Position numbers and translations under genes: made by a program. 64,000 nt of DNA, taken from Verrucomicrobiota bacterium (GTDB lineage: Bacteria; Verrucomicrobiota; Verrucomicrobiia; Limisphaerales; JAEYXS01). The stretch covers positions 3,973-67,972 of the forward strand of contig JAEYXS010000055.1 in the NCBI GenBank assembly GCA_023431185.1. Direction: 5' to 3'. Below the pieces are notes generated by a model. It was not told where the DNA came from. It searched no databases and saw only the letters and a list, made by a program, of their open reading frames with translations. Positions 2,178-62,355 of this stretch are shown here, piece after piece. Numbering within the stretch: the stretch's first letter is position 1; each line of letters starts with the position of its first letter.

Positions 2178-3551
2178 ATGACGTTGACTGAAAAGCTGCT
2201 CGCCCGCGCCGCCGGTAAAGCCTCCGTGCAGGCGGGTGACAATATCTGGGTGAAGGCGGATGTCCTCATGACGCACGATGTGTGCGGCCCGGGGACCATC
2301 GGCGTGTTCAAACGTGAATTCGGCAAGGATGCCAAGGTCTGGGACCGCGAACGCGTGGTCATCATCCCGGATCACTACATCTTCACCTCGGATTCCAAGT
2401 CCAACCGCAACGTGGACATCCTCCGCGAGTTCTCCAAGGCGCAGGGATTGCCTTACTTCTACGACGTGATCGATGACCCGGATGGCGAATGGAAGTTCGA
2501 CGCCGCGAAGGGGAACTTGAAGCGCCAGTACGGCAGCCAATACGCAGGCGTTTGCCACGCGGCGCTGCCGGCCAAGGGTCATACGCGTCCGGGCGAAGTG
2601 CTGTTCGGCACGGATTCGCACACGTGCATGGCGGGTGCCTTCAATGAGTTCGCGACGGGCATCGGCAACACGGACGCTGGGTTCGTGATGGGCACGGGCC
2701 GTCTGCTGATCAAGGTGCCGGAGACGATGCATTTCCGCCTGGAAGGCAAGATGCAGCCGGGCGTAATGGCGAAGGACATCATCTTGCACGTGATCGGCGA
2801 GATCGGTTTCGACGGCGCGACGTATCGCGCGATGCAATTCGATGGACCGGGCGTGGACAGCCTCTCGATGGATGACCGCATGACGATCGCGAACATGGCG
2901 ATCGAGGCCGGTGGCAAGAACGCGATCTTCCCGTTCGACGCGCGCACGGCGGAGTACGTGGATGCGCGCACGAACTTGAACGGCACGAAGCAGCGTTACG
3001 ATCCAGTCGAAGCGGACAAGGACCAGAAGTTCGTTTACGAACTGACGGTGGACTTGAGCAAGCTGGAGCCGACGGTGGCGTGCCATCCTGATCCGGGCCA
3101 ACGCAAGAAGGCGAAGGAGATGGATATGAAGCTGGACCGCGCGTATGTGGGGTCCTGCACGGGCGGCAAGACGAGCGATTTCGTGGAGTTCGCCCGCGTG
3201 TTGCGCGGTCACAAGGTGAGCATCGATACGTTCGGTGTGCCCGCCACGCCGGACATCGTGCACGAGCTGCAGACGACGCGTTGGGGCGGCAAGACGATCT
3301 GGAACATCCTGGTGGACGCGGGTGTGCGCATGACGGAGAACGCCGGTTGCGCCGCGTGTCTGGGCGGTCCGGTGGATACGTTCGGCCGCATCAACCAGGC
3401 GGGCCTCAAGTGCATCAGCGCCACGAACCGCAACTTCCCCGGTCGCATGGGCGACAAGGAATCGCAAGTGTTCCTGGCCAGCCCCGCGACGGTCGCCGCA
3501 AGCGCCATCGCCGGCCGGATCACCGATCCGCGCGAGTATCTCACGAACTGA
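2178..3551 (+). CDS. leuC: Aconitase-family dehydratase large subunit (3-isopropylmalate dehydratase/homoaconitase LeuC type)
   Basis: A 457-aa ORF. The N-terminus MTLTEKLL..AGD.IWVKADVLMTHDV.GP and the Fe-S ligand region GSCTGG...AACLGGP are typical of archaeal-type LeuC/HacA. No small subunit lies adjacent, so substrate assignment is at family level only. Confidence 0.75.
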   Translation: MTLTEKLLARAAGKASVQAGDNIWVKADVLMTHDVCGPGTIGVFKREFGKDAKVWDRERVVIIPDHYIFTSDSKSNRNVDILREFSKAQGLPYFYDVIDDPDGEWKFDAAKGNLKRQYGSQYAGVCHAALPAKGHTRPGEVLFGTDSHTCMAGAFNEFATGIGNTDAGFVMGTGRLLIKVPETMHFRLEGKMQPGVMAKDIILHVIGEIGFDGATYRAMQFDGPGVDSLSMDDRMTIANMAIEAGGKNAIFPFDARTAEYVDARTNLNGTKQRYDPVEADKDQKFVYELTVDLSKLEPTVACHPDPGQRKKAKEMDMKLDRAYVGSCTGGKTSDFVEFARVLRGHKVSIDTFGVPATPDIVHELQTTRWGGKTIWNILVDAGVRMTENAGCAACLGGPVDTFGRINQAGLKCISATNRNFPGRMGDKESQVFLASPATVAASAIAGRITDPREYLTN

Positions 3552-45400: not shown

Positions 45401-48400
45401 GTGATGACCCTGGACGCAAAGTCGTACCATAAGCCATGGGCGTATTGTGCCACCTGGCTGCTCTGCTGGTTGCTTATTTGCACCAGCAGCCTCCGAGCGG
45501 ACGAGTATGATGACCTGCGGCAGAAGTGGTTCGATACGATCGTGGGTGCGGGCTACGACCCCATCGATCCGGTCATCGCTCCCAAGCTGACGAGTATCGC
45601 CAATTCGGCCAACGCGAGTTGGGCGAGCATGGATAAATCCCCTACCCGCACGTACCTCTGGAGCGACCTGGCCAGCACCACGGTTTCCTCGCACATCACC
45701 AGCAACTATGGCCGGTTGCGGGCGATGGCCTTGGGCTACGCCACGCCGGGTTCTTCGCTCCAAGGTAACGCCAACCTGCTGGCCGACCTCTTGAGCGCCT
45801 TGGACTGGATGCATGCCAACCGTTACAACGCCACCAAGACCATTTACGACAACTGGTGGGATTTCGAGATCGGCACGCCGATGCATCTGGGGGATATCGC
45901 GGTGCTGCTTTACGGCCAGCTCAGCCCCACCCAGATTTCGAATTACATGGGGGCGGTGGATAAGTTCACGCCCTCCGCGACCACGCAGGCACCGGGCGGA
46001 ACGACGGGCACGTTCACGGGGGCGAACCGCATGTGGAAGATCCGGGTGGTGGCGGTACGTGGTGCGGTGGTGAAGGATGGGGCCAAGCTGGTCGCGGCTC
46101 GGGATGCTTTCAGCAATCTCTTTCCCTATGTGACGAGTGGTGATGGTTTTTATACGGACGGCTCCTTTTTGCAGCATACCACGCACCCTTACACGGCGGG
46201 TTACGGGGCGAGCCTGATAGCGACCATCGCCCCCGTGATGAATCTGCTGGCGGGTTCCACCTGGGAGGTCACTGACCCCTTGAAGGACAACCTGTATCGC
46301 TGGGTGTTCGATTCGTTTGAGCCGATCATTTATCGCGGGGCGGCCTGGGACCTGGTTCGCGGGCGGGAGGCGGGGCGTTCTGGTGCCAGTGCACAGGCCA
46401 CGGGACATTCGATGATTGATTCCATCATGCAGGTGGCGCAGTTCGCACCGCCAGCCGACGCGGCGCGGATGAAGAGCATGATCAAGGAATGGGCGCTGAG
46501 CGATACGGTGCGGGATTTCGTGGCCAACCGACCCTTGCCCACGGTGAAGATGGCGCAGAGCCTGATGAATGATGCGGGCATCATCCGGCGGGGAGAGTTG
46601 ATCAAGCACTTCACTTTTCCGGAGATGGACCGCGTGGTGCATCTGGGAGCGGGTTACGGCTTCGGACTGAGCATGAGTTCCACGCGCATAGCGAATTTTG
46701 AATCTATCAACGGGGAAAATCTGAAGGGCTGGTACACGGGTGATGGCATGACGATCCTCTACAACTCCGATCTGCTTCAGTTCGGTGATAACTATTGGGC
46801 GACGATCGATGCCTATCGTCTGCCCGGGGTAACGGTGGATGTGACGAAGAGCAAGCTGCCGCATCAGACGGCGTCCATCGGACCGCGCGCCCAAGGGCAG
46901 AACACGCTCTCACCGCATAACTGGGTGGGTGGTGCGACGCTAGACAAGTTCGGCGCGGCGGGCATGCAGTTCAAGGGCGTGGGAGTGACGCTGACGGGCA
47001 AGAAATCGTGGTTCATGTTCGATGACGAAATCGTCTGCCTGGGCGCAGGCATCACGAGCACGGATGGACGCCCCATCGAGACAACGGTGGAGAACCGCAA
47101 GATTTCCAGCACGGGCGCAAACGCGTTCACGGTGAATGATACGAAGCTATCGTCCTCATTGGGATGGAGCGATATCTTAAGCGGCACCTCCTGGGCACAT
47201 CTCGCAGGACATATCGGCGGCGATGACATAGGTTATTATTTTCCGGAAGCCACGGAGATCATAGCGGTAAGGGAGGCACGGACTGGGGCCACCTCGGACA
47301 TCGATGACGGAGGATCCACCACGCCGATCACGAGGAATTATCTGCGGATGACACTGGATCACGGGTCGAACCCTTTGGACGCCACCTACCAATACGTGCT
47401 GCTGCCTGGACGCTCGGCAAGGCACACGAAAACATACGCCCAACACCCCCAGATCACGGTGTTGACGAACACCGCGAATGTGCAAGCGGTGCGCGAAACG
47501 ACGCTGGGCATCACGGCGGCGAACTTCTGGACGGATACGACCCAGACAGCGGGTGGCATCACGGCGAACAAGAAGTGCTCGGTACTCGTGTGTGAGGACG
47601 GAGCATTCATTGACGTGGCCGTGAGTGACCCGACGCAGGCGAATACCGGAACCATCACTCTGCAGATCGACAAGGTCGGCTCGATCATCAGCGCCGATCC
47701 TGGCATCAGCATAAACGCCTTCTCCCACACGATCTCCATGACGATCAATGTGAACGGTTCGAATGGGAAGACGTTCAAAGCACGTTTTTATCGAGGCGAA
47801 CCACAGCTCGTGACCATCCCCGCCGAGGCGGACACTTACACGTATGACAACGATGCCAACAAGGATTCGAATTACGGCAACGCATCCAACCTGGTCGTCA
47901 AGAAGAGCGGTGCCGGGTTCAACCGCGAGGCTTACGTTCGTTTTAACATCCCCGATGTCGGCGGCATCCTGTTCAGCTTGTCGATGGATCTCTACTGCCT
48001 GCAGGCGAGCTCGCCCGGAGTGCATGGAGTTTACCTGGTGCCGGATACCACATGGTCGGAAACAGCGGTCACCTGGAACAACGCCCCCGCAGCAACAGGT
48101 CCCGCATTGGCGACTTGGACCCCGGTCGCGGCAGCCACCCTGGTCTTCGGTTTCGGCAAGACCATCACCAATACCGGGCCCATATCTTTCAAGATTTTGG
48201 CCACCACGCAGACGGCGGATGGTTATGTGTCTTACGCCTCAAGCGAAAACAGCCTGGCCTCAAACGGACCTCACCTCACCTTGGCCGTGGGACACACTCC
48301 ACCTGAAATCAAAATCACGAGCCCAAAAGATGGAGCGTATCATCCCCAAGCCGGCCCGGTAACGATCACGACAGAGGTCACGGCAACGGACGGAGCGATA

Positions 48401-49936
48401 ACCGAGGTGAAGTTTTACAACGGGGCCAACTTATTGGGCGTGGATAACAACGGAGCGCCTTATGAATTGGCGACGACGTTGCCGGGCGGGCAGCATCAAC
48501 TCACGGCGGTGGCGAGAGATGCGAACGGACTGAGCCGCACAAGCCTGGTGCATCATGTGGAGATCGCGTATGCGCCGACGGCGAATAACACGACGGTGAC
48601 GACACCACAGAGCACAGTGGTAGACGTGGACTTGCGCACGCTGGTGAACGATGTCGAGACCCCGACGGCGCAACTGCGCTTCAAGGTGAGTGCGCCGCAG
48701 AATGGCACGGTGACGTTGCTGGCGGATGGTTACACGGCCAGGTTCACCCCGACGGCGGGTTACAACGGTCCGGCAAACTTCACCTACACGGTGCTGGACA
48801 AGTCTTACGATGGGCGGGCGCTGTTCCTCTACGATTTCCAGACGGGCAACACCACGGATACGACGGGGCAAGGTCGTGACGCGACGGAGACGGTCGTGGG
48901 CACGGGCAGCGTGAGCTACACCTCAGATGTGCCGACCATCTTCGCACCACAGGCGGGGCAGAGTGTTTACCTGACGGAGAATGGCACGGCGGGAGCGGCG
49001 CGGCTGGAGCGGGCGCTCACGACGACGGAGCTGGATCTGAAGAATGCGGATTGGACAATCGGTGGCTGGTTCAAACGCGCGGGCACGGCGAACCTCGATC
49101 TCATCTTGCAACTCGGTGAATCGGGCGGTTACGGGAACAACGCGATGACGTTGGGTTACTACGGCACGGGCAATACGTTGGAGCTGCGCAATTACAATGG
49201 CGCGACGCAGGACGTGGGCATCACAAAGGCGAATGTGACGGCGGGTGTGTGGCATCATTTCGCCATCGTGCGGAATGGCGGCACGTTGAGCTTGTATGTG
49301 GATGGCACGCTGGCGGGAAGTGATAACGCGTTCGCGTTCAGTTTCGATAACAGCAAGACGGTGCGGTATGGCGGGGTGAGTCTGCCCACGAGCAGTGCGA
49401 TGTGGGATCGGTGGTGGAAAGGGTCGCTGGCCGATCTGGCGATGTTCAACACGGCGCTCAGCGCGAGCGACGTGACGAAACTGGGCGGATCGCCCACGGC
49501 TTATTTCGCGGGGCAATCAGGGACGAATACAGTGAACATCAGCGTGCTCAGCCCGTTGGAGAGCTGGCGCATCGCGAACTTTGGTTCCGCGAGTAACAAC
49601 GATGCGGCAGACCCGGATGGAGACGGTTACACGAATGCACAGGAGTATGTGCTGGGGACGAATCCGCAAACGGGTAATACGGAACGGATGACACCGACAG
49701 CCACAGGCGGGATGGTGAATTTCAGCTTCACGGCGATGAAGGCCGAAGGGGTGGCGTACGCGGGGTTGACGCGGCGTTACACGGTGGAATACGCGACTGC
49801 ATTCGGGAACCCGACGGTTTGGGCGGGGGTGACGGGCTACGTTGATATCGTGGGGAACAATCAGACGGTGGCGGTGAGTTTGCCGGTGAATGGCGGGGGA
49901 AAGTTTTATCGGGTGAAGGTGGTGTTGGGGCCTTGA
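45401..49936 (+). CDS. Polysaccharide lyase family 8-like enzyme with DNRLRE-like, Ig-like, LamG and C-terminal FYR modules
   Basis: The PL8 N-terminal and catalytic regions show NWWDFEIGTP and FLQHTTHPYTAGYGASL. Other motifs are NYGNASNLVVKKSGAGFNREAYVRFNI (DNRLRE-like), a LamG segment (WHHFAIVRNGGTLSLYVDG) and DPDGDGYTNAQE. The protein ends GKFYRVKVVLGP. Confidence 0.8.
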   Translation: MMTLDAKSYHKPWAYCATWLLCWLLICTSSLRADEYDDLRQKWFDTIVGAGYDPIDPVIAPKLTSIANSANASWASMDKSPTRTYLWSDLASTTVSSHITSNYGRLRAMALGYATPGSSLQGNANLLADLLSALDWMHANRYNATKTIYDNWWDFEIGTPMHLGDIAVLLYGQLSPTQISNYMGAVDKFTPSATTQAPGGTTGTFTGANRMWKIRVVAVRGAVVKDGAKLVAARDAFSNLFPYVTSGDGFYTDGSFLQHTTHPYTAGYGASLIATIAPVMNLLAGSTWEVTDPLKDNLYRWVFDSFEPIIYRGAAWDLVRGREAGRSGASAQATGHSMIDSIMQVAQFAPPADAARMKSMIKEWALSDTVRDFVANRPLPTVKMAQSLMNDAGIIRRGELIKHFTFPEMDRVVHLGAGYGFGLSMSSTRIANFESINGENLKGWYTGDGMTILYNSDLLQFGDNYWATIDAYRLPGVTVDVTKSKLPHQTASIGPRAQGQNTLSPHNWVGGATLDKFGAAGMQFKGVGVTLTGKKSWFMFDDEIVCLGAGITSTDGRPIETTVENRKISSTGANAFTVNDTKLSSSLGWSDILSGTSWAHLAGHIGGDDIGYYFPEATEIIAVREARTGATSDIDDGGSTTPITRNYLRMTLDHGSNPLDATYQYVLLPGRSARHTKTYAQHPQITVLTNTANVQAVRETTLGITAANFWTDTTQTAGGITANKKCSVLVCEDGAFIDVAVSDPTQANTGTITLQIDKVGSIISADPGISINAFSHTISMTINVNGSNGKTFKARFYRGEPQLVTIPAEADTYTYDNDANKDSNYGNASNLVVKKSGAGFNREAYVRFNIPDVGGILFSLSMDLYCLQASSPGVHGVYLVPDTTWSETAVTWNNAPAATGPALATWTPVAAATLVFGFGKTITNTGPISFKILATTQTADGYVSYASSENSLASNGPHLTLAVGHTPPEIKITSPKDGAYHPQAGPVTITTEVTATDGAITEVKFYNGANLLGVDNNGAPYELATTLPGGQHQLTAVARDANGLSRTSLVHHVEIAYAPTANNTTVTTPQSTVVDVDLRTLVNDVETPTAQLRFKVSAPQNGTVTLLADGYTARFTPTAGYNGPANFTYTVLDKSYDGRALFLYDFQTGNTTDTTGQGRDATETVVGTGSVSYTSDVPTIFAPQAGQSVYLTENGTAGAARLERALTTTELDLKNADWTIGGWFKRAGTANLDLILQLGESGGYGNNAMTLGYYGTGNTLELRNYNGATQDVGITKANVTAGVWHHFAIVRNGGTLSLYVDGTLAGSDNAFAFSFDNSKTVRYGGVSLPTSSAMWDRWWKGSLADLAMFNTALSASDVTKLGGSPTAYFAGQSGTNTVNISVLSPLESWRIANFGSASNNDAADPDGDGYTNAQEYVLGTNPQTGNTERMTPTATGGMVNFSFTAMKAEGVAYAGLTRRYTVEYATAFGNPTVWAGVTGYVDIVGNNQTVAVSLPVNGGGKFYRVKVVLGP

Positions 49937-49992: not shown

Positions 49993-50322
49993 TCAGAGAT
50001 GATACTCGGTCCCATCACGGACCAAGATGATACGCTCCGCACCGGAACGCTCCGGTCTATTGCTGATGGCCAGCCAGCGATTGAACTCCGCCTGATTAGC
50101 CACCTCCACACGAACGATCATCACACGATCGCTCCATAGAAGATTGATCCGGTTCCGCGCGTCGGGGTTTTTAGGAAAAGAAAGCGCCAAAGTCGTAAAA
50201 CTTTCACTGCGCAGGTATCTGCCCATTGCCCCTTGCTGGTATTCGCGATGGATAACAAAAACGAGTGCGGCAACGGTGATTGCCACAAACCACTTAAAGA
50301 ATCTGGCTGGCGGATAGATCAT
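49993..50322 (-). CDS. Hypothetical small membrane-anchored protein
   Basis: The start was taken at MIYPPARFFKWFVAITVAALVFVI so as not to overlap the tRNA fragment. The gene is AT-richer than the PL8 gene. Confidence 0.4.
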   Translation of the reverse strand: MIYPPARFFKWFVAITVAALVFVIHREYQQGAMGRYLRSESFTTLALSFPKNPDARNRINLLWSDRVMIVRVEVANQAEFNRWLAISNRPERSGAERIILVRDGTEYHL

Positions 50323-50334
50323 GCTCCAAAAAGT

Positions 50335-50392
50335 TGGTGCGCGAGAAAGGACTTGAACCTTCACCCCTTACGGGACCAGATCCTAAGTCTGG
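50335..50392 (-). pseudogene. 3' part of a split tRNA-Leu(UAG) gene (tRNA positions 27-84 including CCA)
   Basis: The minus-strand sequence is CCAGA-CTTAGGA-TCTGG-tcccgtaaggggt-GAAGG-TTCAAGT-CCTTT-CTCGCGC-ACCA. No matching D-arm or 5' acceptor strand lies adjacent. Confidence 0.85.
50380..50392. repeat. 13-bp direct repeat ATCCTAAGTCTGG (left att core)
   Basis: It is identical to 57494-57506 and corresponds to the anticodon stem-loop of the split tRNA. Confidence 0.85.
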
Positions 50393-50470
50393 TAGTTGCT
50401 GCACTGAGAGACTTTTTTGTGCGTTGGTAGAGAGCAACTTAGATTTTTCACGTTCTTATAGGCATGTGCA

Positions 50471-50491
50471 TGTGCCACTTTTTGTGCCAGT
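50471..50491 (+). promoter_or_regulatory. Double heptamer TGTGCCAC-TTTTT-GTGCCAGT (candidate integrase arm-type/operator site, left)
   Basis: An identical 21-mer lies at 57350-57370. This copy sits 78 nt from the core and 8 nt before the int ATG. Confidence 0.55.
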
Positions 50492-50499
50492 GTTAGCCT

Positions 50500-51711
50500 A
50501 TGAAAACGAATGTAACCCGCTGCTGTCCAGAATCTTCCAATCCAGAGAAGAGTATCGAGAAAACGGTCAAGAATCGCTTCTTCAAGGTCATTGATGGACG
50601 TAAACAACCTGTCCGGGGTCTCTGGGTCAGGAACGGACGTTACTACGCGAGGTTAGCTGTTGAAGACGAGAGGACTGGCAAAAAGTCAGTTAAACGTATC
50701 CTGATTGAAGACGCGACAACCGTGCCACAAGCAGTCGAGGCACTGAAGGTGCTCCAAGTAAAGCGTAAGGCCAAGGATCTGCCCGTCACCAAGCGTACCC
50801 CAAAGTTCAACGAATACGTGGACAGTTACCTGAATTTTTACAAAACGGTCAAAGACGCAAAACGTGAGTCCACTATGGAGACCGAAAGCGGCTTGCTCAA
50901 GCAGTGGGTGAAACATTTAGGCGAGACTCGCCTGAGTCAAATCAACAAGCGCATGATTCTCGCCTTCATCGAGGAAAGGCAAGGGGCTGGGTGGAGCGGG
51001 CGAACCGTAAATCTTAGCATGACTGTGCTAAGGAACGTCTTGAAGAAAGCAATTGATGAGGAATGGCTCAAGCGCTTGCCCACGGAGAACATGCGCCCCT
51101 TGAAATGGACCCCTCGTAAGCGCAGCTTACTATCAGCAAATGAGATGGAGCGCCTGTGTGAAAAAGCCCTCACCACTTCAAAGAACGGACAGCAGTTGGC
51201 AGACTACCTCAGGCTCATGTCTTACTGTGGTTCAAGGATGACGGAGACCTTGCATCTCAAATGGTCTGATGTGGCATGGGAAACCCGTCAAATCACCATT
51301 GGATCAGATGGACTCACCAAGAACAACAAGGCAAGGCGCGTCGATTTTAACGCCAAACTGGAAGCACACCTCAAGGACATGTTCTCACGGAAAGCCCCCG
51401 ACTCTGATTGGCTTTTCCCCTCCCCTTTACGCGGCGACCAAGACAGGGCTGCGAAGTCTTTCAGGGAAAGTCTGCTGCTCGCCAGGAAAGCCGCTAAACT
51501 GCCCCATGTTGGTTTCCATGACTGTCGCCATTTGTTCATCAGTTACTGCGTCATGTCAGGCATCGATTTTATGACGATTGCTCGCTGGGTCGGCCATCAA
51601 GACGGAGGGGTTCTGATTGGAAAGGTTTACGGACATCTCAGCAACGAACATACCCAGCTTCAAGCACAGCGGGTTGTTTTTGGGCCATCAAGCATCTTAG
51701 CAGCGGCCTAG
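50500..51711 (+). CDS. int: Tyrosine-type site-specific integrase
   Basis: Catalytic-region motifs are GSRMTETLHLKWSDV, GFHDCRHLFIS and GKVYGHLSNEH. An N-terminal SAM-like domain is present. It is a paralog of the 57614-58825 gene. Confidence 0.9.
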   Translation: MKTNVTRCCPESSNPEKSIEKTVKNRFFKVIDGRKQPVRGLWVRNGRYYARLAVEDERTGKKSVKRILIEDATTVPQAVEALKVLQVKRKAKDLPVTKRTPKFNEYVDSYLNFYKTVKDAKRESTMETESGLLKQWVKHLGETRLSQINKRMILAFIEERQGAGWSGRTVNLSMTVLRNVLKKAIDEEWLKRLPTENMRPLKWTPRKRSLLSANEMERLCEKALTTSKNGQQLADYLRLMSYCGSRMTETLHLKWSDVAWETRQITIGSDGLTKNNKARRVDFNAKLEAHLKDMFSRKAPDSDWLFPSPLRGDQDRAAKSFRESLLLARKAAKLPHVGFHDCRHLFISYCVMSGIDFMTIARWVGHQDGGVLIGKVYGHLSNEHTQLQAQRVVFGPSSILAAA

Positions 51712-51718
51712 CTTAGCC

Positions 51719-52225
51719 TTACGCAATAAGTGCCATCAGAAAACGCCTTACCAATGGCCGTTTTGTTTTTGGGGTAGTAAATCTCTCGTCTAGCTTGGCA
51801 GCCAGAGATTCAAGGAACTCTTGCTCACCAGCGTAGTGTTTGAGCCATTTCAGCACTTTCTTTCCATTTTCGTCATGCGCTTCTGGCACTACTTCGTAAG
51901 CCATCCCTGAAATCGGCCCCCTCTTGAAAATTGGCTTTCCGTAAAAGAACAAAAAAGCGTAGACCTCCTTTAGCACCAAATCTTCAATCATTCGATGACG
52001 TTTTCTAGTGCCGGCGCCTCTCACAGGCATGGGAAAACGATCTAAAATATTGTCAACTTCATGTTTCTTGCTGCGATGCTGCTTACAAAGTACGCAACGG
52101 TATCGCAGCATAGTTTTGGTGTTGCTATGCCTTGGGCCTTTCGACTCCATTCTTCCTCCACAGACCTCGCAGCGCACACCCCCTCCCTTATTGCAAACTG
52201 AGCGTAGACTCAATTTTAAAATCAT
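51719..52225 (-). CDS. Hypothetical protein with an N-terminal Zn-ribbon (CxxC...CxxC)
   Basis: The Zn-ribbon region is CEVCGGRMESKGPRHSNTKTMLRYRCVLCKQH. The remainder was not recognised. Confidence 0.5.
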   Translation of the reverse strand: MILKLSLRSVCNKGGGVRCEVCGGRMESKGPRHSNTKTMLRYRCVLCKQHRSKKHEVDNILDRFPMPVRGAGTRKRHRMIEDLVLKEVYAFLFFYGKPIFKRGPISGMAYEVVPEAHDENGKKVLKWLKHYAGEQEFLESLAAKLDERFTTPKTKRPLVRRFLMALIA

Positions 52226-52375
52226 TTTAAAGGGGAATTACCTCAAAAAGGCCCGACTTGCCGAACTTAGCCATAAAAACTGAAATTTTTCACGGTTCCT
52301 TTATGTGTGCGGGTAAACCACCTGCAACTGCACTTCTCTACTGAGAGATGCAGGCTCTAAACCAGAAGCATTGCT

Positions 52376-52603
52376 ATGAACAGGTTTTGCAGTCTCGCCA
52401 AGTTCCAGAAGGAAATTGGAGTCAGTTACCAGACCTTGTGGCGTTGGCGCCAACGGGGATGGCTGAAAACAATCACCATTGCTGGCAACCCATACGTCAC
52501 GAACGAAGCCATTCAGGAGTTTCTTAGGCGTGCCGAAGCTGGGGACTTCAAAATCCCCACCACTTACGCTGCCAAGACCCAACTCAAGCAAGAGGAACCC
52601 TAA
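52376..52603 (+). CDS. Excisionase-like helix-turn-helix protein (HTH_17/AlpA-like)
   Basis: Contains IGVSYQTLWRWRQRGWLKTITIAGNPYV. It is a paralog of 60780-61013 (LGISRTTLWRWRKYGWIVTVQIAGRHYI). Confidence 0.7.
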   Translation: MNRFCSLAKFQKEIGVSYQTLWRWRQRGWLKTITIAGNPYVTNEAIQEFLRRAEAGDFKIPTTYAAKTQLKQEEP

Positions 52604-52613
52604 AACTAACAAC

Positions 52614-53171
52614 ATGAACGCAAAGATCAAAAGTCCGTTGAAATGGCCGACTGAAAAAATCAGGACGCCAGTTGATAAAATCCGTATGGCTCGGTTCCAC
52701 AATTGGAGCTCAGAGGAAGCTCAATCCAAGCTTGAGGCTGAGCTTCGCAAAGCAAAAGCCACTGACGTAACCATCACATACAATGCCAGCTCTCGCTCCA
52801 AGGACGAAGGGGTTGCAGTTTTCTTCAACCACAAAGGACGCCCCGTAGTGCTTGCCTGTGACAAATGGAAAACCATCGCAGAAAACTTATGGGCGATTGC
52901 TTGCCACATCCACGCGCTTCGTGGTCAAGAACGGTGGGGTGTTGGCACCATGGAAAGCGCTCTCGCAGGTCATCTGCTTTTGCCCCAATCCTCAGAAGGA
53001 AAGTCTTGTTGGGAGATTCTTGGAGTGGAGCAAGGGGCTGAAGTTGATCAGATCCGCTCAGCTTATCGCAATAAGGCAAAGGAATGCCACCCTGACAGGG
53101 GTGGTTCTGACGAGTCTATGATGCTGCTCAATCAGGCTCTTGAACAGGCCATCGAGAATTCAAAAGGCTAG
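52614..53171 (+). CDS. J-domain protein (C-terminal DnaJ-like domain with HPD)
   Basis: The J domain is CWEILGVEQGAEVDQIRSAYRNKAKECHPDRGGSDESMMLLNQALEQA. The N-terminal domain resembles prophage-borne J-domain proteins. Confidence 0.7.
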   Translation: MNAKIKSPLKWPTEKIRTPVDKIRMARFHNWSSEEAQSKLEAELRKAKATDVTITYNASSRSKDEGVAVFFNHKGRPVVLACDKWKTIAENLWAIACHIHALRGQERWGVGTMESALAGHLLLPQSSEGKSCWEILGVEQGAEVDQIRSAYRNKAKECHPDRGGSDESMMLLNQALEQAIENSKG

Positions 53172-53174
53172 CAA

Positions 53175-54278
53175 GTGCAGCAGGGGGAGGGCCTGTACGA
53201 ACAACGCTTCCCCCTGCTTTTCTCAACTCCTCAACCTAATAGTATCTCTACTAATATCTTCATGCCTCTTCCAGATCACCTGAACTGGTCCAATCTCGCT
53301 GAGCTTACAAGCAACCAGTTTTGCCTGTCAGACGAGCAAAGGTTCTTTTTGTTGAACACAACGAATCGCATCCGCCTGTTCCCGCATAGGTTTAATCGCA
53401 ACCAAGGCTACCCTGAGACAGCAGGACTTATCCTGATGTCTGACTGGAATCACAGGCAGAGGTTTTGCCTCTGCTCAAATCGCAAATCCATCTGCAAGCT
53501 GTGGAAGTTTTGCCATTACTGCCGCCACCTCTACCGCATGAGGCTCATGCATACCTTTCTGCCTCACTTCAGCGCTGGCAACTGGTACTTTCTTACCATC
53601 AGCTTTGATGGCCAACTGAGCTTTGAATCGCCATTATTGGACGATCCGACAAATTACTGGGCCGCTTGTGGTCATGCGATCCATGAAATGGTTGAAAGCC
53701 GCCAAGTTATAGGGGCAATCAAGGTCGAGGAACTGAGCATCTGCTCTTTCAACCCCTTAACTGTCTTGCCTCATTGCCATATTCTCCTGTTCACCGAGCA
53801 AATCAGTCCATCTTTCATCGATGAGACCAATGCTTTGGTTGAGTCATATCGCCCTGTTGAGTTCAATCCAGACCTTGAGACTTGGGAGGTATTTCAAGAC
53901 GGGCGAATCCATCATCCTGTCACGACGCGATTGGCCCGCCTTGAGGCTCAGGAGAATCTAGCCAAAACCATCTCATATCTGATTAAGCCCATCGACGTTG
54001 TAACGCCCTACAGGGCCAGCTTGGAAGCCTGCGAGGGTGCCCCTGAAACAGTCAGGCAACTGAACCAAAACGTCTGCGAATTCTTTCTCAGTTACAGCGA
54101 GACCACGCACAGTCGTCGCCAACTCCAATACTTTGGCACCTTAGACGCCCGCCGCCGCTCAAGGTTTGTTGGGGTGAGTCCAGCATGTCGCGAGGCACCA
54201 GCCAACAGGTCGCTTGTGAGGGAGTTGCTCAGGAGTTATCCGACGAATGTTTTGTTGGAAGATGAGGCAAATGAGTAG
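53175..54278 (+). CDS. rep: Rolling-circle replication initiator, pC194/pUB110-like (Rep_1-type HUH)
   Basis: A Zn-finger-like CKLWKFCHYCRH (compare FCKSRLCPMCNWRR). Motif 1 is YFLTISF, motif 2 is LPHCHILLF (HUH) and motif 3 is AKTISYLIKP (Tyr). The start (GTG 53175 or ATG 53262) is uncertain. Confidence 0.6.
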   Translation: MQQGEGLYEQRFPLLFSTPQPNSISTNIFMPLPDHLNWSNLAELTSNQFCLSDEQRFFLLNTTNRIRLFPHRFNRNQGYPETAGLILMSDWNHRQRFCLCSNRKSICKLWKFCHYCRHLYRMRLMHTFLPHFSAGNWYFLTISFDGQLSFESPLLDDPTNYWAACGHAIHEMVESRQVIGAIKVEELSICSFNPLTVLPHCHILLFTEQISPSFIDETNALVESYRPVEFNPDLETWEVFQDGRIHHPVTTRLARLEAQENLAKTISYLIKPIDVVTPYRASLEACEGAPETVRQLNQNVCEFFLSYSETTHSRRQLQYFGTLDARRRSRFVGVSPACREAPANRSLVRELLRSYPTNVLLEDEANE

Positions 54279-54603
54279 CTTGAGAGCCGCCCGCTACTTG
54301 TCACTCAATCCATGCTTCCAATGACAGGAAAAAATCATGGCGAAAAGCAGGTGCTTCTTGCTACGTTCTAACCTGCAAAGCTTATGTAAACAAAAACGTC
54401 GAACAATTTAGCGTAGCAAAGGCTACGGTCTCGCTAAGAAACCGCGAATTTCATTTGTCCAGAGACCAGCCCAGGTACGCGCCTAATCGGGCGCGGCTTG
54501 GTATCTTCCTCTGGACAGGCGCTTCGCGGTGCCTTTAGCGGGGATGCGCCAGGTTCGCGCTCCTGCTTTTTGACCGCATTGCACGCTAAGAAAGGCTGTA
54601 ATC

Positions 54604-56463
54604 TTGAATATCAAAAGAATCATCGTCGCTACAGTCGCAGGCGTTGTCAGTCTGCCAGCGATGGCAGCTTCAGTAAGCGGTTACGGACAATCAGTGTTCT
54701 TATCGCCTGTTTCAGCCAATAGCTATGGTATTCCAGTCGTGATGAATTTCACCACTTCTGATGGACGCACAGATGTCTCTCCTCTTCGCCAGACAATTTC
54801 TGGCGGTTACCTTTACAGTGGTGAACTTAGGCCGAAAATAGGCGGAGGTGGAATCTACGAAACAGACTTCATAACAGTTAAAGTGAGCGATGGATCTACT
54901 GCTGAATATGGCAGCCTAGAGATCAGCCTTCCAGTCACTGACTCAGATGCCAATGGACTACCAGATTTCGCGCAGCAAGACATGTCATGCAACATATCCA
55001 CAACAGGTGTAGCAAAAACCGATTTCAGTTCAGTCCCCCCCGCACAATCGCGAAACGTGCTAATCACGATGAATCGAAATAGCGGTTCCAAATCTGGCAC
55101 TTACACGGTTAAAGACCAAGCGACCGGTGGCAGCACCATTAATTTCTCAGGAAGTTGGGAGATCAACACCTTCTCAGGAAGCATGGCTTACGACCGAGGA
55201 AGCCAAAACCTCGCCTCTTTTGCTATCCAAAGATTTAACTCCAGAAGTGGTACGGTCAGGACTTTTACGGGGGCAACGGTGTTCACGGTGGACAGTGAAA
55301 ACCAACTGACTTTCCCTCAGTTCCATGTCACAGATACCAGTGACGGTTCTGTTTACACAATCGGCGGGACCATCCTGACTCGCTCCGGCAACAAGTATTC
55401 CGGTTCAATTGCTTTCACAGATGGCGATCTTAGCACGACGTGGAACGACTACACCAGTTGGCAAGTTGAGATTGCCGACGCCAGCGACATTGATGGTGAT
55501 GGGGTGCCTGATTTGTCAGACACAGCCTACGCAAATGCCCCATCTTCAAACAAAGTGCTCTCACTCGATGGTAGCAATAGCTATGTGAAGGTGGCTAATT
55601 CCACCTCATTGCATTCGGCAACAGAGTTGACCTTGGAAGCTTGGGTTTATCCCGAGAGCGCTCCCGCCAATCAAAGCCAGTATTTCATCAGCAAGGGAGA
55701 TGGAGGATCGGTCACCTCTGATCGCAGCTACCATATCAACTGGAAACCTGTCACCACAGCCTCACCGGGCTTTAACGTCGAAATGTTCTTCAATCAAAAC
55801 AACTATGCCTATGTCATTGTACCAGCAGCAGAGAGAAAATGGGTCCACATTGCGCTGACGTTCAACAGTTCAGACGGAGTGATGAAGTTTTACACAAACG
55901 GAGTTCTGGCAGCCCAACAAACGAAAGATTCTTCCAACGGGCCTCTTCTAGGGCAAACCATTCGCCAGAGCAGCAAGGATTTGGTTTTTGGCAACCTCTT
56001 GGCTCCGCCAGCATCAGGCAAGTATGCCAAAGGGTATCTAGATGAAGTGCGAATTTGGGGGGTGTCCAAAGACAAAGATGGAATCCTGCTCACGATGCAA
56101 AGCAGACTTTCCGGCAATGAACCAAATCTTTTAGCTTACTGGAACTTTGATGCGGGAATCCTCACCGACGTTTCTGGAAATGGCCACGAAGGATTGTCAT
56201 ACGGAAATGCCGTAATCAATCTGATTTCCGGTAACAACGAGGTCCACGCTGCGCGTATCAAATCCGTCATTCGCAATGCAAACGGCACGGCACTACTGTC
56301 AATCAACCTAGCGACCAATCTGCCACATACAGTCTTGGCATCCCCTAACCTTCAAGACTGGACAATGGTAACGAACATCGTAGCCACTAGCTCGCCTTTT
56401 GAAGTCACAGACCCATACTCAACCAACAGTCCGGTTAGATTCTACCAACTGACATCGCCCTGA
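54604..56463 (+). CDS. Secreted LamG (concanavalin A-like) domain protein with Asp-rich Ca-binding-like motifs and C-terminal FYR-type module
   Basis: A TTG start gives the signal MNIKRIIVATVAGVVSLPAMAAS. Other motifs are DSDANGLPDFAQ, DIDGDGVPDLSD and LamG_3-like LTLEAWVYPES...WVHIALTFNSSDGVMKFYTNG. The protein ends VRFYQLTSP. Confidence 0.7.
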   Translation: MNIKRIIVATVAGVVSLPAMAASVSGYGQSVFLSPVSANSYGIPVVMNFTTSDGRTDVSPLRQTISGGYLYSGELRPKIGGGGIYETDFITVKVSDGSTAEYGSLEISLPVTDSDANGLPDFAQQDMSCNISTTGVAKTDFSSVPPAQSRNVLITMNRNSGSKSGTYTVKDQATGGSTINFSGSWEINTFSGSMAYDRGSQNLASFAIQRFNSRSGTVRTFTGATVFTVDSENQLTFPQFHVTDTSDGSVYTIGGTILTRSGNKYSGSIAFTDGDLSTTWNDYTSWQVEIADASDIDGDGVPDLSDTAYANAPSSNKVLSLDGSNSYVKVANSTSLHSATELTLEAWVYPESAPANQSQYFISKGDGGSVTSDRSYHINWKPVTTASPGFNVEMFFNQNNYAYVIVPAAERKWVHIALTFNSSDGVMKFYTNGVLAAQQTKDSSNGPLLGQTIRQSSKDLVFGNLLAPPASGKYAKGYLDEVRIWGVSKDKDGILLTMQSRLSGNEPNLLAYWNFDAGILTDVSGNGHEGLSYGNAVINLISGNNEVHAARIKSVIRNANGTALLSINLATNLPHTVLASPNLQDWTMVTNIVATSSPFEVTDPYSTNSPVRFYQLTSP

Positions 56464-56598
56464 AAGACGTGATTTTGCATACAAGTGAGAGTCTCATCCG
56501 CAAAACCGACCCGCGAAACACAAGCAGTTTCAAGTAAGGCATTTGTGCAGCAAAACCCATTTGACGGTTCTGAGTGGCAGGTATTACAGCCGTTGCGC

Positions 56599-57015
56599 TC
56601 AATTCAGTGCACGAGACATATTCCAACTTGATGGGCATGGGTAGATGAGACGCCGAGGCATGATTCCAATCCTCCCAACAGGCCAGATAAAGGCTGCGCG
56701 AAAACAGCATCCATAACGAGCCGCGGAAACCTCATCCGCTTTTACTGGCACACCGTATTCCTTGGTGATTTGCATGATTTTCTCAGCCACTAGTTTGGAT
56801 AGTCCATCATTTGCGATACTTGGCAATTCAGCCATCTGAGATTCGCTCATTTGTGGTGAAAACGCGATGCCACCTTTAAGCCTCACCTCCCAAAGATGAT
56901 GATACTTGCACTTCTTAACACTTATCACCCGCAATCCATTCCGCTGGAACCCCAAGCTGAGCCAATTGTGGAAAAAGTAACGACTGGGAAGAAAATACAG
57001 CAAACGTTCAGGCAT
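56599..57015 (-). CDS. Hypothetical protein
   Basis: A 138-aa ORF inside E1. The family was not recognised. Confidence 0.4.
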   Translation of the reverse strand: MPERLLYFLPSRYFFHNWLSLGFQRNGLRVISVKKCKYHHLWEVRLKGGIAFSPQMSESQMAELPSIANDGLSKLVAEKIMQITKEYGVPVKADEVSAARYGCCFRAAFIWPVGRIGIMPRRLIYPCPSSWNMSRALN

Positions 57016-57156
57016 GGATTAGCCTACAGTTCCAGTTAAGCCATGCACAGCGACGATGGAACATGAACTCCAAGCCTTAACGAAAAAACTCAACTCTTAG
57101 GTCAACAAGACGTTTGCTTGACTGAGGGCACGTCAGCCTTGAATCTGGCAAAGGTT

Positions 57157-57240
57157 GGGCATGTGGCGGAATGGCAGACGCGCTGGACTTAGGATCCAGT
57201 GGAGAAATCCGTGCAGGTTCAAGTCCTGTCGTGCCCACCA
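57157..57240 (+). tRNA. tRNA-Leu (anticodon UAG), intact, CCA-encoded, carried inside E1
   Basis: An 84-nt cloverleaf. The acceptor is GGGCATG/CGTGCCC (one G-U pair), the D stem is GCG/CGC, the anticodon arm is CTGGA-CTTAGGA-TCCAG, there is a long variable arm, the T arm is GCAGG-TTCAAGT-CCTGT, and it ends ACCA. Confidence 0.85.
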
Positions 57241-57349
57241 TCTCACTTTCTTTCCACCAATGAGCACGGGCAGCAGTTTGCTGCCTAAACCAGCCAGAAC
57301 GCGTTTCTGATGCTAAGAATGCCATCCTGAGCGAGCTTCCTTGGCTATG

Positions 57350-57370
57350 TGTGCCACTTTTTGTGCCAGT
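57350..57370 (+). promoter_or_regulatory. Double heptamer TGTGCCAC-TTTTT-GTGCCAGT (right-arm copy)
   Basis: It is identical to 50471-50491 and lies 123 nt inside the right att core. Confidence 0.55.
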
Positions 57371-57493
57371 TATGACATCAAGGTGATTCCTCCGTTCCTA
57401 GGCTTACCAGACAACACTTCACACAATGTTTACAGGCCAATGCTCGAAAGCTTATGGAAGCATTTGGAAGGGTTTGAAAATGGCAAAAACGAA

Positions 57494-57506
57494 ATCCTAA
57501 GTCTGG
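57494..57506. repeat. 13-bp direct repeat ATCCTAAGTCTGG (right att core)
   Basis: It is identical to 50380-50392. Confidence 0.85.
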
Positions 57507-57532
57507 CGTGTCTGCCATTTCACCACTCGCGC
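57494..57532 (-). pseudogene. 5' part of the split tRNA-Leu(UAG) gene (tRNA positions 1-39)
   Basis: The minus-strand sequence is GCGCGAG-TG-GTG-AAATGGCAGA-CAC-G-CCAGA-CTTAGGA-T. The acceptor strand is perfectly complementary to CTCGCGC at 50339-50345. Confidence 0.85.
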
Positions 57533-57583
57533 AACCTTGATAATCAAGCACTTAGGAGTGTCTGACTGTGATTTTCTTGCAGT

Positions 57584-57604
57584 TGTGACACTGATTGTGA
57601 CACT
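57584..57604 (+). promoter_or_regulatory. Double heptamer TGTGACAC-TGATT-GTGACACT upstream of the second integrase
   Basis: The architecture matches the 50471-50491 site: 77 nt from the core and 9 nt before the int ATG. Confidence 0.5.
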
Positions 57605-57613
57605 TTTGCGTTC

Positions 57614-58825
57614 ATGAAACCCGCTGCAACCGCCAGCCCAGGTTTGCAACCCGATGGCACAACTGTCGAATCACAGGGCGGAGCCTACCAAAGTGTGCTG
57701 GACCGACGCAAGCGGCCGATACGCGGACTTTGCTGCCGCAACGGGCGCTTCTACGCCCGCCTCAGCATCGAAGACCCCGCCACCGGGCGCAAGGCCGTCC
57801 GGCGCGTGCCGCTGGCAGCCGAAACCGTGGCCTAGGCCACCGCGGAACTGCGGACCCTGCAAACCCGGCGTCAGGACCAGGCCCTCCCCGCCCTGCGCCG
57901 CGCCCCCAAGTTCAACGAGTACGCGGACCAGTATCTCGCCTATTTTGAAACCGTGAAAGGGGCCAAACGGAAGCGCACGATCGAAACGGAAACCGGGCAC
58001 CTCAACCAGTGGAAAGCCCATCTGGGCGAAACCCGGCTCAACCAGATCAGCCGGGCCATGATCAACGATTTCATCACCAAACGGAAAGCCCCCAAGATTG
58101 GCAAAGACAACAAGGAAAAGACCATCAGCAACCGGACCATCAACCTCGCCATCGTCTGCCTCCGCAACGTGCTGAAAAAGGCCCTGGAGGAAGGCTGGAT
58201 CAAGGCGCTGCCCACCGAGAACATGCGACCGCTGAAGTACACCGCCCGGAAGCGGCAGCTGTTCACGCTGGCCGACATGGAAAAGATCTGCGGGCAGGCG
58301 CTGGAGACCTCCAAGAACGGGCAGGAGTTCGCCGACTATCTCCGTTTGATGGCGTATTGCGGCTCCCGCATGACGGAGACGCTCGCCCTGAAATGGGCGG
58401 ATGTGGACTGGCAGCAGAAGCAGTTGACGATCGGTGCCGACGGGCAGAGCAAGAACCACCAGGCGCGGGTGGTGGACTTCAACCCCAAACTCGAAGCGCA
58501 CTTACGGGAGATGAAGCAGCGGAAGGCGCCGGATACGGCCTGGCTTTTTCCGTCACCGCAGCGCGGCAACAAGGACCGTCCCAGCAAGACCTTCCGGGAA
58601 ACTTTGCTGATGGCCCGGAAGGCGGCCGGCCTGGAAGGCTTCGGTTTTCATGACTGCCGGCACTTCTTCATCTCGATGTGCGTCATGTCCGGGATCGATT
58701 TCATGACCATCGCCCGCTGGGTGGGCCATCAGGACGGGGGAATTCTGATCGGCAAGGTCTATGGACACCTGTCCAACGAACACGCGCAACGGCAAGCACA
58801 GCGGATCAAATTTGGTCCGACTTGA
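57614..58825 (+). pseudogene. Tyrosine integrase paralog interrupted by one in-frame TAG at 57833-57835
   Basis: ORFs 57614-57835 and 57953-58825 are in the same frame, and the translation is collinear with Int1 across the stop (AETVA*ATAELRTLQ against TTVPQAVEALKVLQ). Catalytic motifs are retained downstream. Confidence 0.8.
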
Positions 58826-59132
58826 AGGAAAGCATCGTTTCCACATGCTTTGTCTTGCGTGAAATCGGAGCGGCCCCGAATAGGGACTCTACCGCTTGAG
58901 CAAGGATCCAAAGACTCGCCGAGCTCAACACCTTAACGAAACGGCTACTCCATGAACTGCGTGACTCAGCTAACACTGGCGCAACTGCCCTACACAAAGG
59001 GGTTCCAAATAATGCTTGAAGCATTACCACGGGGGATTATAACGAATTTACTATCCCACTTACTCAGGAATAATGAGCGGACAAGAAACACTTCCTGATT
59101 GTCAACGAACAGAGCTTAACTAAATCCAAGCC

Positions 59133-61559: not shown

Positions 61560-62355
61560 CCGCCATCAACATCTTGAGGCCAGATTTGTTCAAGACAAGC
61601 ACGGCATCTGGCGGCGTCGTTTCCAGAAGCGCGAACTGGCTGACACCATCGATAGTTTCTTTGCTCGTACTCGGTTTGCGCAACAACGAAGTTTGTATGG
61701 CACAGCCTGCCTTATATGGCAAGGTGCCCGTGACAAACGGGGTTACGGTGTCCTAAGTGTCGCCGGAAAGCGACTCCTGGCGCATCGGGTCGCCTTCGTG
61801 ATGGCGTATGGAAAAATCCCCAAGCCATTGGTCCGTCACTTATGTGATAACACCTCTTGCGTAAACCCTTTACATTTGGCTGCCGGGACAGCGCTTGACA
61901 ATCACAACGACGCAAAAAAAGCTAATCGCACGGCAAAGGGTGAAAGCAGCGGCCGGTATAAACATCCAGAGGCTTACCCGGTTGGAGATGCGTGTCCGAA
62001 CAGCAAGTTGACCTCGATAGCAGTCATGGAAATCCATCGGCTCTACCGGACCCGCTTGAAAGACACCGTGGAACTTAGCATTGATTACGGCGTTTCCGTC
62101 ACCACCATCAACTCGGCCCTGCACGGCCGGAGTTGGAACATTGAGTTTGAGGCTGCCAGGCAAATTTATCCCAGTATGGAGATGCACCACCGCAAAAATC
62201 TCGGCAAAAAGCGCTGGAAATTTGACGCGGCTAAGGCTGCGCAGATACGCGCCAAAAAAGAAGCTGGGATGTCCGTGAACTCAATAGCCAACGAATTTGT
62301 ACTGAGTGTCTCCTCGATTTATAAGGCTCTCCGCATGTATCCCAAAGACAAATGA
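61552..62355 (+). CDS. HNH endonuclease (HNH_3 type) with C-terminal HTH-like modules
   Basis: Contains CLIWQGARDKRGYGVLSVAGKRLLAHRVAFVMAYG...HLCDNTSCVNPLHLAAGTALDNHND. Confidence 0.8.
   Translation: MISRHQHLEARFVQDKHGIWRRRFQKRELADTIDSFFARTRFAQQRSLYGTACLIWQGARDKRGYGVLSVAGKRLLAHRVAFVMAYGKIPKPLVRHLCDNTSCVNPLHLAAGTALDNHNDAKKANRTAKGESSGRYKHPEAYPVGDACPNSKLTSIAVMEIHRLYRTRLKDTVELSIDYGVSVTTINSALHGRSWNIEFEAARQIYPSMEMHHRKNLGKKRWKFDAAKAAQIRAKKEAGMSVNSIANEFVLSVSSIYKALRMYPKDK

Follow-up and report, generated by a model that had tools for sequence, protein, structure and literature searches.

Two tandem elements in a tRNA-Leu(UAG) anticodon loop probably represent an integrase clade that uses the tRNA 5' side

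How does a tRNA gene come to lie in two pieces about 7 kb apart, with an integrase gene beside each break and a complete tRNA of the same anticodon in between? This question is raised by a 64,000-nucleotide (nt) stretch of Verrucomicrobiota bacterium GCA_023431185.1 (contig JAEYXS010000055.1, positions 3,973-67,972, forward strand), hereafter the window, in which an insert that we call E1 interrupts the anticodon loop of a minus-strand tRNA-Leu(UAG) gene. E1 begins with an integrase gene, int1, and is followed by a decayed integrase gene, int2, which we assign to an older element, E2. Our analysis indicates that the locus is probably a tandem of two integrative elements in one tRNA-Leu(UAG) anticodon loop, both served by lambda-type, arm-binding integrases of a single clade.

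E1 spans 50393-57506 (7,114 bp) between exact 13-bp repeats. This core 13-mer, ATCCTAAGTCTGG, has exactly two copies in the window (50380-50392 and 57494-57506), corresponds to tRNA index positions 27-39, and takes in the anticodon loop. When the segment 57532-57507, the core, and the segment 50379-50338 were joined, the result was an 84-nt tRNA-Leu(tag) that ARAGORN accepted; the pieces rejoin as a perfect tRNA-Leu(UAG). The GC content of E1 is ~0.49, compared to 0.58-0.61 in the host DNA to its left. The features of the locus, in window coordinates, are as follows.

50338-50392, minus strand: 3' portion of the host tRNA-Leu(UAG), index positions 27-84 with CCA, left behind by E1, with the core as its last 13 nt
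50380-50392: core copy 1 (5' strand of the anticodon stem, 7-nt loop and 1 nt), the E1 left junction
50393-50499, plus strand: int-proximal (P') arm of E1, with spacing identical to that of the integrase family
50393-50418: 5'-half slot of E1, 26 nt of non-tRNA sequence where relatives hold tRNA positions 26-1
50433-50442: AGCAACTTAG block in the E1 arm
50471-50491: E1 double heptamer in the P' arm, TGTGCCA twice with a period of 12
50500-51711, plus strand: int1, an intact 403-amino-acid (aa) tyrosine integrase with Pfam Phage_integrase and SAM-like domains
51719-57015: E1 cargo, comprising a Zn-ribbon-like open reading frame (ORF), a DnaJ-domain protein, a 367-aa ORF, a LamG-domain protein and a 138-aa ORF
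57157-57240, plus strand: complete cargo tRNA-Leu(UAG) (ARAGORN; Rfam tRNA, 58.5 bits)
57350-57370, plus strand: far-side (P arm) double heptamer of E1, identical to 50471-50491
57494-57506: core copy 2, the E1 right junction and E2 left junction
57507-57532, minus strand: tRNA-Leu(UAG) positions 1-26, probably E2-borne; the window letters are the reverse complement
57533-57613, plus strand: int-proximal arm of E2, 81 nt, the only DNA upstream of the tRNA
57547-57555: AGCACTTAG block in the E2 arm
57584-57604: E2 double heptamer in the int-proximal arm, TGTGACA twice
57614-58825, plus strand: int2, an integrase pseudogene with a GC content of ~0.61

Across the whole window ARAGORN reported one tRNA only, the E1 cargo gene, and Rfam likewise found a single tRNA between 50 and 58 kb even at E = 1. 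Neither program placed a tRNA at either E1 junction, because the attP of E1 shares just the 13-bp core with the tRNA. No tRNA-Leu besides the cargo gene was found in the ~111 kb examined, which comprises the window and its extension along the scaffold. A bacterial split tRNA, with halves transcribed and then joined, was considered and rejected because the sequences flanking the two halves are not complementary.

The two integrase genes are preceded by similarly spaced DNA. In E1 the core is followed by 78 nt, the 21-mer TGTGCCACTTTTTGTGCCAGT (50471-50491), 8 nt, and the int1 ATG at 50500; in E2 it is followed by 77 nt, the 21-mer TGTGACACTGATTGTGACACT (57584-57604), 9 nt, and the int2 ATG at 57614, so that the block from core to ATG is 123 nt long in both. 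An earlier note on this DNA had proposed that the two arms share such a blueprint, and apart from 1-nt details we found its distances and motifs: the AGCA(A)CTTAG block lies at matching places, both versions beginning 40 nt past the core end; a second, identical copy of the E1 21-mer lies at 57350-57370; and the first 26 nt after the E2 core (57507-57532) are tRNA positions 26-1. The tetramer CTGC, which had been placed at the same offset in both arms, starts 6 nt past the core in one and 5 nt in the other. Outside the core and ATG, ungapped identity between the E1 and E2 arms is 29/107 (shuffle p = 0.49), which is the chance level; therefore, the blueprint common to E1 and E2 is positional, without sequence similarity. 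On its own the E1/E2 pair is unconvincing, and the blueprint gains its weight because relatives repeat it, in 59 related arms.

Scanning 185,579 species genomes with Int1 returned 69 loci with integrases 35-66% identical to it, and 64 of these had enough upstream sequence to be counted for tRNA arrangement. At 59 of the 64 loci, a tRNA on the opposite strand turns its 5' end toward int, at a typical distance of ~80 nt and mostly ~50-110 nt from the estimated int start. The target is tRNA Leu-taa at 26 loci, Leu-cag at 12, Leu-caa at 10, Leu-tag at 6, Phe at 3, and Met at 2. The classical arrangement, with the tRNA 3' end toward int, occurred at 0 of the 64. The five exceptions are a tRNA masked by Ns (L055), three decayed tRNAs (L067, L086, L099), and a tandem junction at which another element's P arm precedes the 5' half and loop (L039). 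The clade comprises 2,396 database proteins at E <= 1e-20, and most of the genome contigs that carry an identical anticodon region are labelled Limisphaerales or Pedosphaera.

Nine loci have a far end that falls inside the 10-kb flank and were treated as complete elements, with sizes of 4.7-9.8 kb. At the far end of all nine, tRNA positions 1-39/40 are repeated exactly and in direct orientation; identity breaks off 1 nt past the anticodon loop, where a flank unlike the int-side arm takes over. This flank looks native in most of the nine, and is another element's arm in L044 and perhaps in L037. At position 6 of the L037 tRNA, the int-proximal copy has a T that makes a G-U pair with the 3' half and the far-end copy has a C that would pair G-C, a pattern consistent with the far copy being the displaced native one. 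Two complete elements that were examined encode an HTH protein or a T5orf172-domain protein, and both have a weak rolling-circle Rep match. The earlier note had suggested that this family recombines in the anticodon loop and that the element supplies the 5' half. The 59 arrangements, the nine far-end repeats, and a related locus described below (L123) agree with that suggestion and support a model in which the integrases of the clade cross over in the anticodon loop, strand exchange probably taking place within its 7 nt, and the element brings the tRNA 5' half together with its upstream region.

Tandem junctions also exist outside the window, in L039 and L044. At these junctions we observed period-12 double heptamers of another specificity, TTATATCCC / TTTGTATCCC (L044 7242-7500; L039 ~880-910), followed in L044 by an ORF whose integrase-like N-terminus is different (KDGKWHSF...NGNYYGRIKLSGK). 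The 5'-side blueprint appears to be shared by a second type of integrase.

The arm repeats recur throughout the clade. All 59 related arms tested contain an exact or one-mismatch heptamer repeat (at least 7 nt, 12-nt period) located 28-64 nt from tRNA position 1 (47-52 nt in 55 arms), and the two copies are identical in 55 of 59; in shuffled arms, an exact repeat of this type arises with a probability of 0.006. Heptamer sequences are lineage-specific (TGTGCCA, TGTGCTA, TTGCGAC, TGTGACA, GGTACAC). In 8 of the 9 complete elements, one further copy of the double heptamer, with its orientation unchanged, precedes the far core by 132-155 nt, and the sequence co-varies between the int-side and far-side copies. 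The far-side heptamers of E1 lie 144 and 132 nt before the far core, and the corresponding 21-mer lies 123 nt before core copy 2. Alignment of the att regions of relatives, a check that the earlier note had recommended, gave this common layout with heptamers in 59 arms, and the arm consensus contains a conserved TTGtaAAT..GGTT block just upstream of the tRNA.

In the integrases themselves, the tyrosine recombinase catalytic residues R246, K274, H340, R343, H366, and Y377 (R..K..HxxR..H..Y) are invariant across a 60-sequence alignment. An AlphaFold2 (AF2) model of Int1, with a mean predicted local distance difference test (pLDDT) score of 81, has an N-terminal domain of four strands and a helix at aa 28-90 (pLDDT 66-88). 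Its best PDB matches are full-length lambda Int structures (1z1b, 1z1g, and 5j0n; 362-375 columns), and N-truncated lambda Int aligns to the model over 290-300 columns only. Because of the heptamer layout and the match between the Int1 model and full-length lambda Int, we infer that a heterobivalent integrase uses the double heptamers as arm-type sites and predict that its N-terminal domain binds them. In the P arms of L035, L037, L044, L048, L066, L074, and L080, we also observed a conserved block, CCAATAAAATCAAKGKT, 40-60 nt left of the far core, with a weaker counterpart in E1 (window ~57436-57460); this block may be a site for an accessory factor (IHF/Xis-like).

Comparison of these loci reveals a common attP layout in the clade. 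It opens with a P arm whose double heptamer precedes the core by ~130-155 bp; the core takes in the anticodon loop, the stem strand on its 5' side, and 1 nt, and is followed by tRNA positions 26-1; then come an arm of ~50 bp, a second double heptamer, ~10 bp, and the int start. With this layout, integration retains the host 3' half, replaces the native 5' half and upstream DNA with those of the element, and displaces the native 5' half and promoter to the far end of the element. Because this geometry displaces the native flank by at least 4.7 kb, the element would supply the tRNA promoter, and the TTGtaAAT..GGTT block is the putative promoter of the regenerated tRNA. In the window, E2 would have inserted first and then decayed, its arm and 5' half persisting within a working tRNA gene. 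E1 would have inserted later at the same core, its cargo tRNA-Leu(UAG), of another Verrucomicrobial type, presumably replacing the lost function.

E1 retains all of the features that recombination in the family requires: the core and the TAAGT block are present, as are both pairs of heptamers, and every spacing is exact. Both the tRNA 5' half and the TTGtaAAT..GGTT block are missing. The predicted attP junction of E1 contains GGCAAAAACGAAATCCTAAGTCTGGTAGTTGCTGC, and the restored attB is predicted to be the E2 arm plus GCGCGAGTGGTGAAATGGCAGACACGCCAGACTTAGGATCTGGTCCC. The earlier note had described E1 as carrying a decayed copy of the 5' half and a whole tRNA instead. The whole tRNA is present; the decayed copy could not be demonstrated, as the 26-nt slot matches the tRNA 5' half at 7/26 positions ungapped and at 10/25 with a 1-nt shift (hand count), which is the chance level. 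It is nonetheless plausible that this slot is a decayed 5' half. The cargo tRNA has the same anticodon as the disrupted host gene and a different sequence, and is identical at 82 of 84 positions to tRNA-Leu(tag) genes on two other contigs from metagenome-assembled genomes (L109, labelled Pedosphaera, and L116). Thus, E1 presumably represents 'tRNA-dependent' integration, in which a cargo tRNA stands in for the gene that the element disrupts.

The closest homologue of Int1 among 5.8 billion proteins is 67% identical. Homologues of the E1 cargo proteins were absent from the 69 related loci, and a scan of IMG/VR found no relatives of Int1 or E1. As possible signs of a temperate phage, the cargo offers a DnaJ-domain PHROG and weak LamG matches only. 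We observed that the DnaJ-domain protein (window 52479-53171) matches phrog_9210, which has no assigned function, over its full length (E = 8e-38), and that a DnaJ-domain gene is also present in the related element of L130. A plus-strand tRNA-Leu near an integrase fragment in L101 was considered as a relative of E1 and rejected as an ordinary chromosomal tRNA.

The int2 gene has an in-frame TAG at 57833-57835, where Int1 has Gln, and a Logan contig from a separate assembly (L104) has this stop too. Int2 is 60% identical to Int1, and PF00589 is found in both. Inactivation looks recent because the catalytic residues downstream of the stop all remain intact. The search for the other end of E2 was extended along the same scaffold to coordinate 110,860, 53 kb right of int2, and covered the core plus 5' half (<=11 mismatches), GTGACAC heptamers, tRNAs, and int homologues. 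An 8-mer at 61751, TCCTAAGT, was rejected as a candidate end, being a chance match inside an HNH gene. E2 is best described as a decayed relic that retains the int-side junction.

Several results weigh against the proposal of two tandem elements with arm-binding integrases, E1 being tRNA-dependent. Within its 53 kb, the far-end search for E2 turned up neither a second core nor a 5' half, and it was equally negative for a GTGACAC pair, tRNAs, and int homologues; the earlier note had expected a core and a displaced 5' half beyond 64 kb, and these are absent to coordinate 110,860. No E1-free or excised form was found, as every indexed contig with Int1 or the flanking 109-aa gene is occupied by E1, and a metagenome scan for such a form returned a related species only. 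All assemblies of the E1 locus derive from one sampling project. The Int N-terminal region has no Pfam match, and none to PDB sequences, and scans for sigma-70 consensus promoters were empty in the arms of both E1 and E2. Finally, the tRNA-Leu inventory behind the tRNA-dependent interpretation spans ~111 kb of the genome.

This last point bears on the alternative that survives best, in which the E1 insertion was accidental or the tRNA gene is non-essential, a second host tRNA-Leu(UAG) exists, and the E1 tRNA is unrelated cargo. Besides the ~111-kb span of the inventory, this explanation is favored by the frequency with which mobile elements carry tRNAs and by an arrangement that is unique to E1 among the ~70 family elements examined. 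We regard it as unlikely, however, as the cargo tRNA carries exactly the disrupted anticodon, the core is an exact 13-bp match at the family-standard site and spacing, and the same combination is experimentally functional in mycobacteriophages (PMC10865867).

A second alternative does without E2 and makes E1 the sole element: the tRNA, the int2 gene, and the int2 arm would be domesticated, conserved chromosome. A pseudogene with host-like GC content, the missing far end, and the presence of an arm and int stub in the syntenic locus L014 as well would all fit this explanation. The single metagenome match, L123, tells against it. Its left flank is 86% identical to that of the window over 416 nt, and its 3' half is 100% identical, including a T-stem variant (GAAGG/CCTTT) found in 0 of 33 genomes, yet L123 has an intact tRNA with a native-type, unrelated upstream flank and no int. 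Among 31 genomes with this tRNA and enough upstream sequence, ~27 likewise have unrelated upstream flanks, several with the motif 'cttgaggtt...ggcatcttt', and int2 lies at the family-standard distance from the core in addition to its 60% identity to Int1. We therefore consider the absence of E2 very unlikely. Because L123 has an intact tRNA with an unrelated native flank, int2 and its arm are, as judged by this comparison, an insertion rather than conserved chromosome; int2 plus tRNA as an element-free, conserved arrangement, which the earlier note had named as a finding that would speak against it, was not what L123 and the ~27 of 31 genomes with unrelated flanks revealed. The L123-type native 5' half is CGCGTCTGCCATTTCGCCACTCGCGC. 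It differs from the window 5' half at index 11 and 24, a compensated D-stem pair; these two substitutions are consistent with a chimeric window tRNA and fall short of proof.

That the tandem is an assembly artefact from repeated tRNA and core sequence is hardly credible: the source is a metagenome assembly and Logan contigs break within the E1 tRNA, but the same junctions are present in an ENA scaffold and in separately assembled Logan contigs, both junctions fit the family blueprint with P-arm heptamers at the standard distance, and analogous tandem junctions occur in unrelated genomes.

For two elements in tandem, the structure by itself does not reveal the order of insertion, since the same map results whichever core copy is used. 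An order with E2 first and E1 later, as the earlier note had also proposed, fits the decay and host-like GC content of int2, the low GC content and intact integrase of E1, and L014, and these observations support it. L014 is syntenic with the window (73% nt identity in the PL8 lyase gene); its tRNA is intact and E1 is absent, but it carries an int stub of 52 aa and an arm like that of E2. The E2 arm is 76% identical to that of L014 and 83% identical to that of L002, which is an E2-type arm with GTGACAC heptamers. Because L014 and L002 carry such arms, it seems that element-derived arms can outlive their elements as the upstream region of a tRNA gene.

A broader proposal, which we advance tentatively and rate slightly below an even chance, is that replacement of the 5' half and promoter is obligatory across the clade and that E1 has been caught in transition to tRNA-dependent integration. 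If so, the Leu tRNA genes of these bacteria would be repeatedly re-promoted by mobile DNA, the element-derived arm would stay as the tRNA upstream region after decay (as in the window, L014, L002, and L033), and E1 would be the first example of tRNA dependence both beyond the Gram-positive phages and for the 5' side.

On the host side of the att site, a gene for a 1511-aa family-8 polysaccharide lyase with CBM96, Big, and LamG domains (window 45401-49936) is followed by a conserved 109-aa ORF (window 49993-50322) that starts 16 nt from the tRNA 3' end; both genes are kept beside the att site in L014 and L123. The DNA right of int2 contains mobile-element and defence-type genes and is syntenic with other Verrucomicrobial contigs. 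From window position 58826 through 64000 to ~82 kb (L126), it is a mosaic of HTH, HNH, PDDEXK, SymE toxin, WGR-domain ATP-dependent ligase, DUF3150, DUF1257/DUF2997, and AAA ATPase genes, whose order is kept in three other contigs (L128-L130), one of them from the same sample. A defence-like block at ~82,700-110,860 (L131, L132, L133) combines a Dcm methylase with AIPR, DUF4420, Z1, and HATPase_c_3 proteins, and also holds a 2005-aa DEAD/MZB helicase with a 1171-aa partner, WYL proteins, a NUDIX protein, and an ADP-ribosylglycohydrolase. At ~108075-108155 (L133 ~2706-2786, minus strand), we observed an inverted partial copy of the E2 arm (CAGTCGACACTCCTAAGTTTGTGAAGGTGATCAAGTT vs CAGTCAGACACTCCTAAGTGCTTGATTATCAAGGTT). 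Its local score of 53, compared to 27 ± 4.4 for shuffles and 47 for the best other window, is borderline; the copy could be a relic of another element's arm or of a rearrangement.

When elements integrate into tRNA genes, the usual rule is that the host promoter is kept and the 3' end is replaced. Reversal of this rule across a whole integrase clade implies that it is a property of integrase lineages and not a general constraint. It follows from the geometry proposed here that an essential tRNA gene can have its promoter and half of its sequence permanently swapped by mobile elements, and island-finding tools that expect 3' fragments would mis-map such elements. Anticodon-loop-targeting tRNA integrases reportedly form part of a classification made by Williams in 2002. 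Like those enzymes, the clade described here has a core centered on the symmetric anticodon stem-loop; unlike them, its homology block runs from the loop to the tRNA 5' end, not the 3' end. As in lambda Int-type heterobivalent systems, the integrases appear from the Int1 model to have a three-domain architecture, and paired arm-type repeats lie on both sides of the core, but the arm sites differ from those of lambda Int-type systems in being tandem pairs with a 12-bp period, placed immediately upstream of the int start codon. With its compact attP of ~270 bp and readable arm-site specificity, this recombination system could serve integration vectors in Verrucomicrobiota.

Both 5'-side use of tRNA genes and tRNA-dependent integration are already known, though rare. 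Recombination with the 5'-distal part of tRNA genes has been called 'considerably less frequent' than with the 3' part (Krupovic et al., 2019, PMC6563490), in a paper whose passages on the subject cite Zhao and Williams, 2002, and several archaeal cases, and the Islander algorithm permits 5' tRNA fragments. The earlier note's view that 5'-side replacement is atypical thus holds as far as rarity goes, and the phenomenon had already been published (PMC6563490). As in those 5'-distal elements, the 5' part of the tRNA is replaced and, in nine relatives of E1, a displaced 5' fragment marks the far end. In the literature such elements are scattered exceptions (PMC6563490), whereas here the arrangement is a clade-wide rule (59 of 64 loci, 6 tRNA targets). 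What appears to be new, from the comparisons made here, is the 5'-side reversal as a rule across a large clade, a conserved attP architecture in which the arm sites co-vary, the persistence of relic arms in front of tRNA genes, and a 5'-side tRNA-dependent member outside Gram-positive phages that adjoins a canonical relative.

tRNA-dependent lysogeny has been proven experimentally in mycobacteriophages (Fionnbharth and others; Guerrero-Bustamante and Hatfull, 2024, PMC10865867) and is suspected in prophage Lj965 of Lactobacillus johnsonii (PMC10865867). E1 resembles these phages in several respects: its tyrosine integrase has arm sites, the common core inside a tRNA gene is short (13 bp, compared to ~10 bp), neither junction restores a tRNA, and the element brings a cognate tRNA of its own. 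E1 differs from the mycobacteriophage cases in that its core is the anticodon loop, it lies on the 5' side of the tRNA, its host belongs to the Verrucomicrobiota, and it is 7.1 kb long with no recognisable phage genes. The discussion in PMC10865867 raises the possibility that gain of a tRNA relaxes selection on attP homology, which is the route suggested here for E1. The E1/E2 pair places a canonical attP beside one that lacks the tRNA segment and has a whole tRNA gene in addition, a contrast corresponding to the evolutionary step that the authors of tRNA-dependent lysogeny left open.

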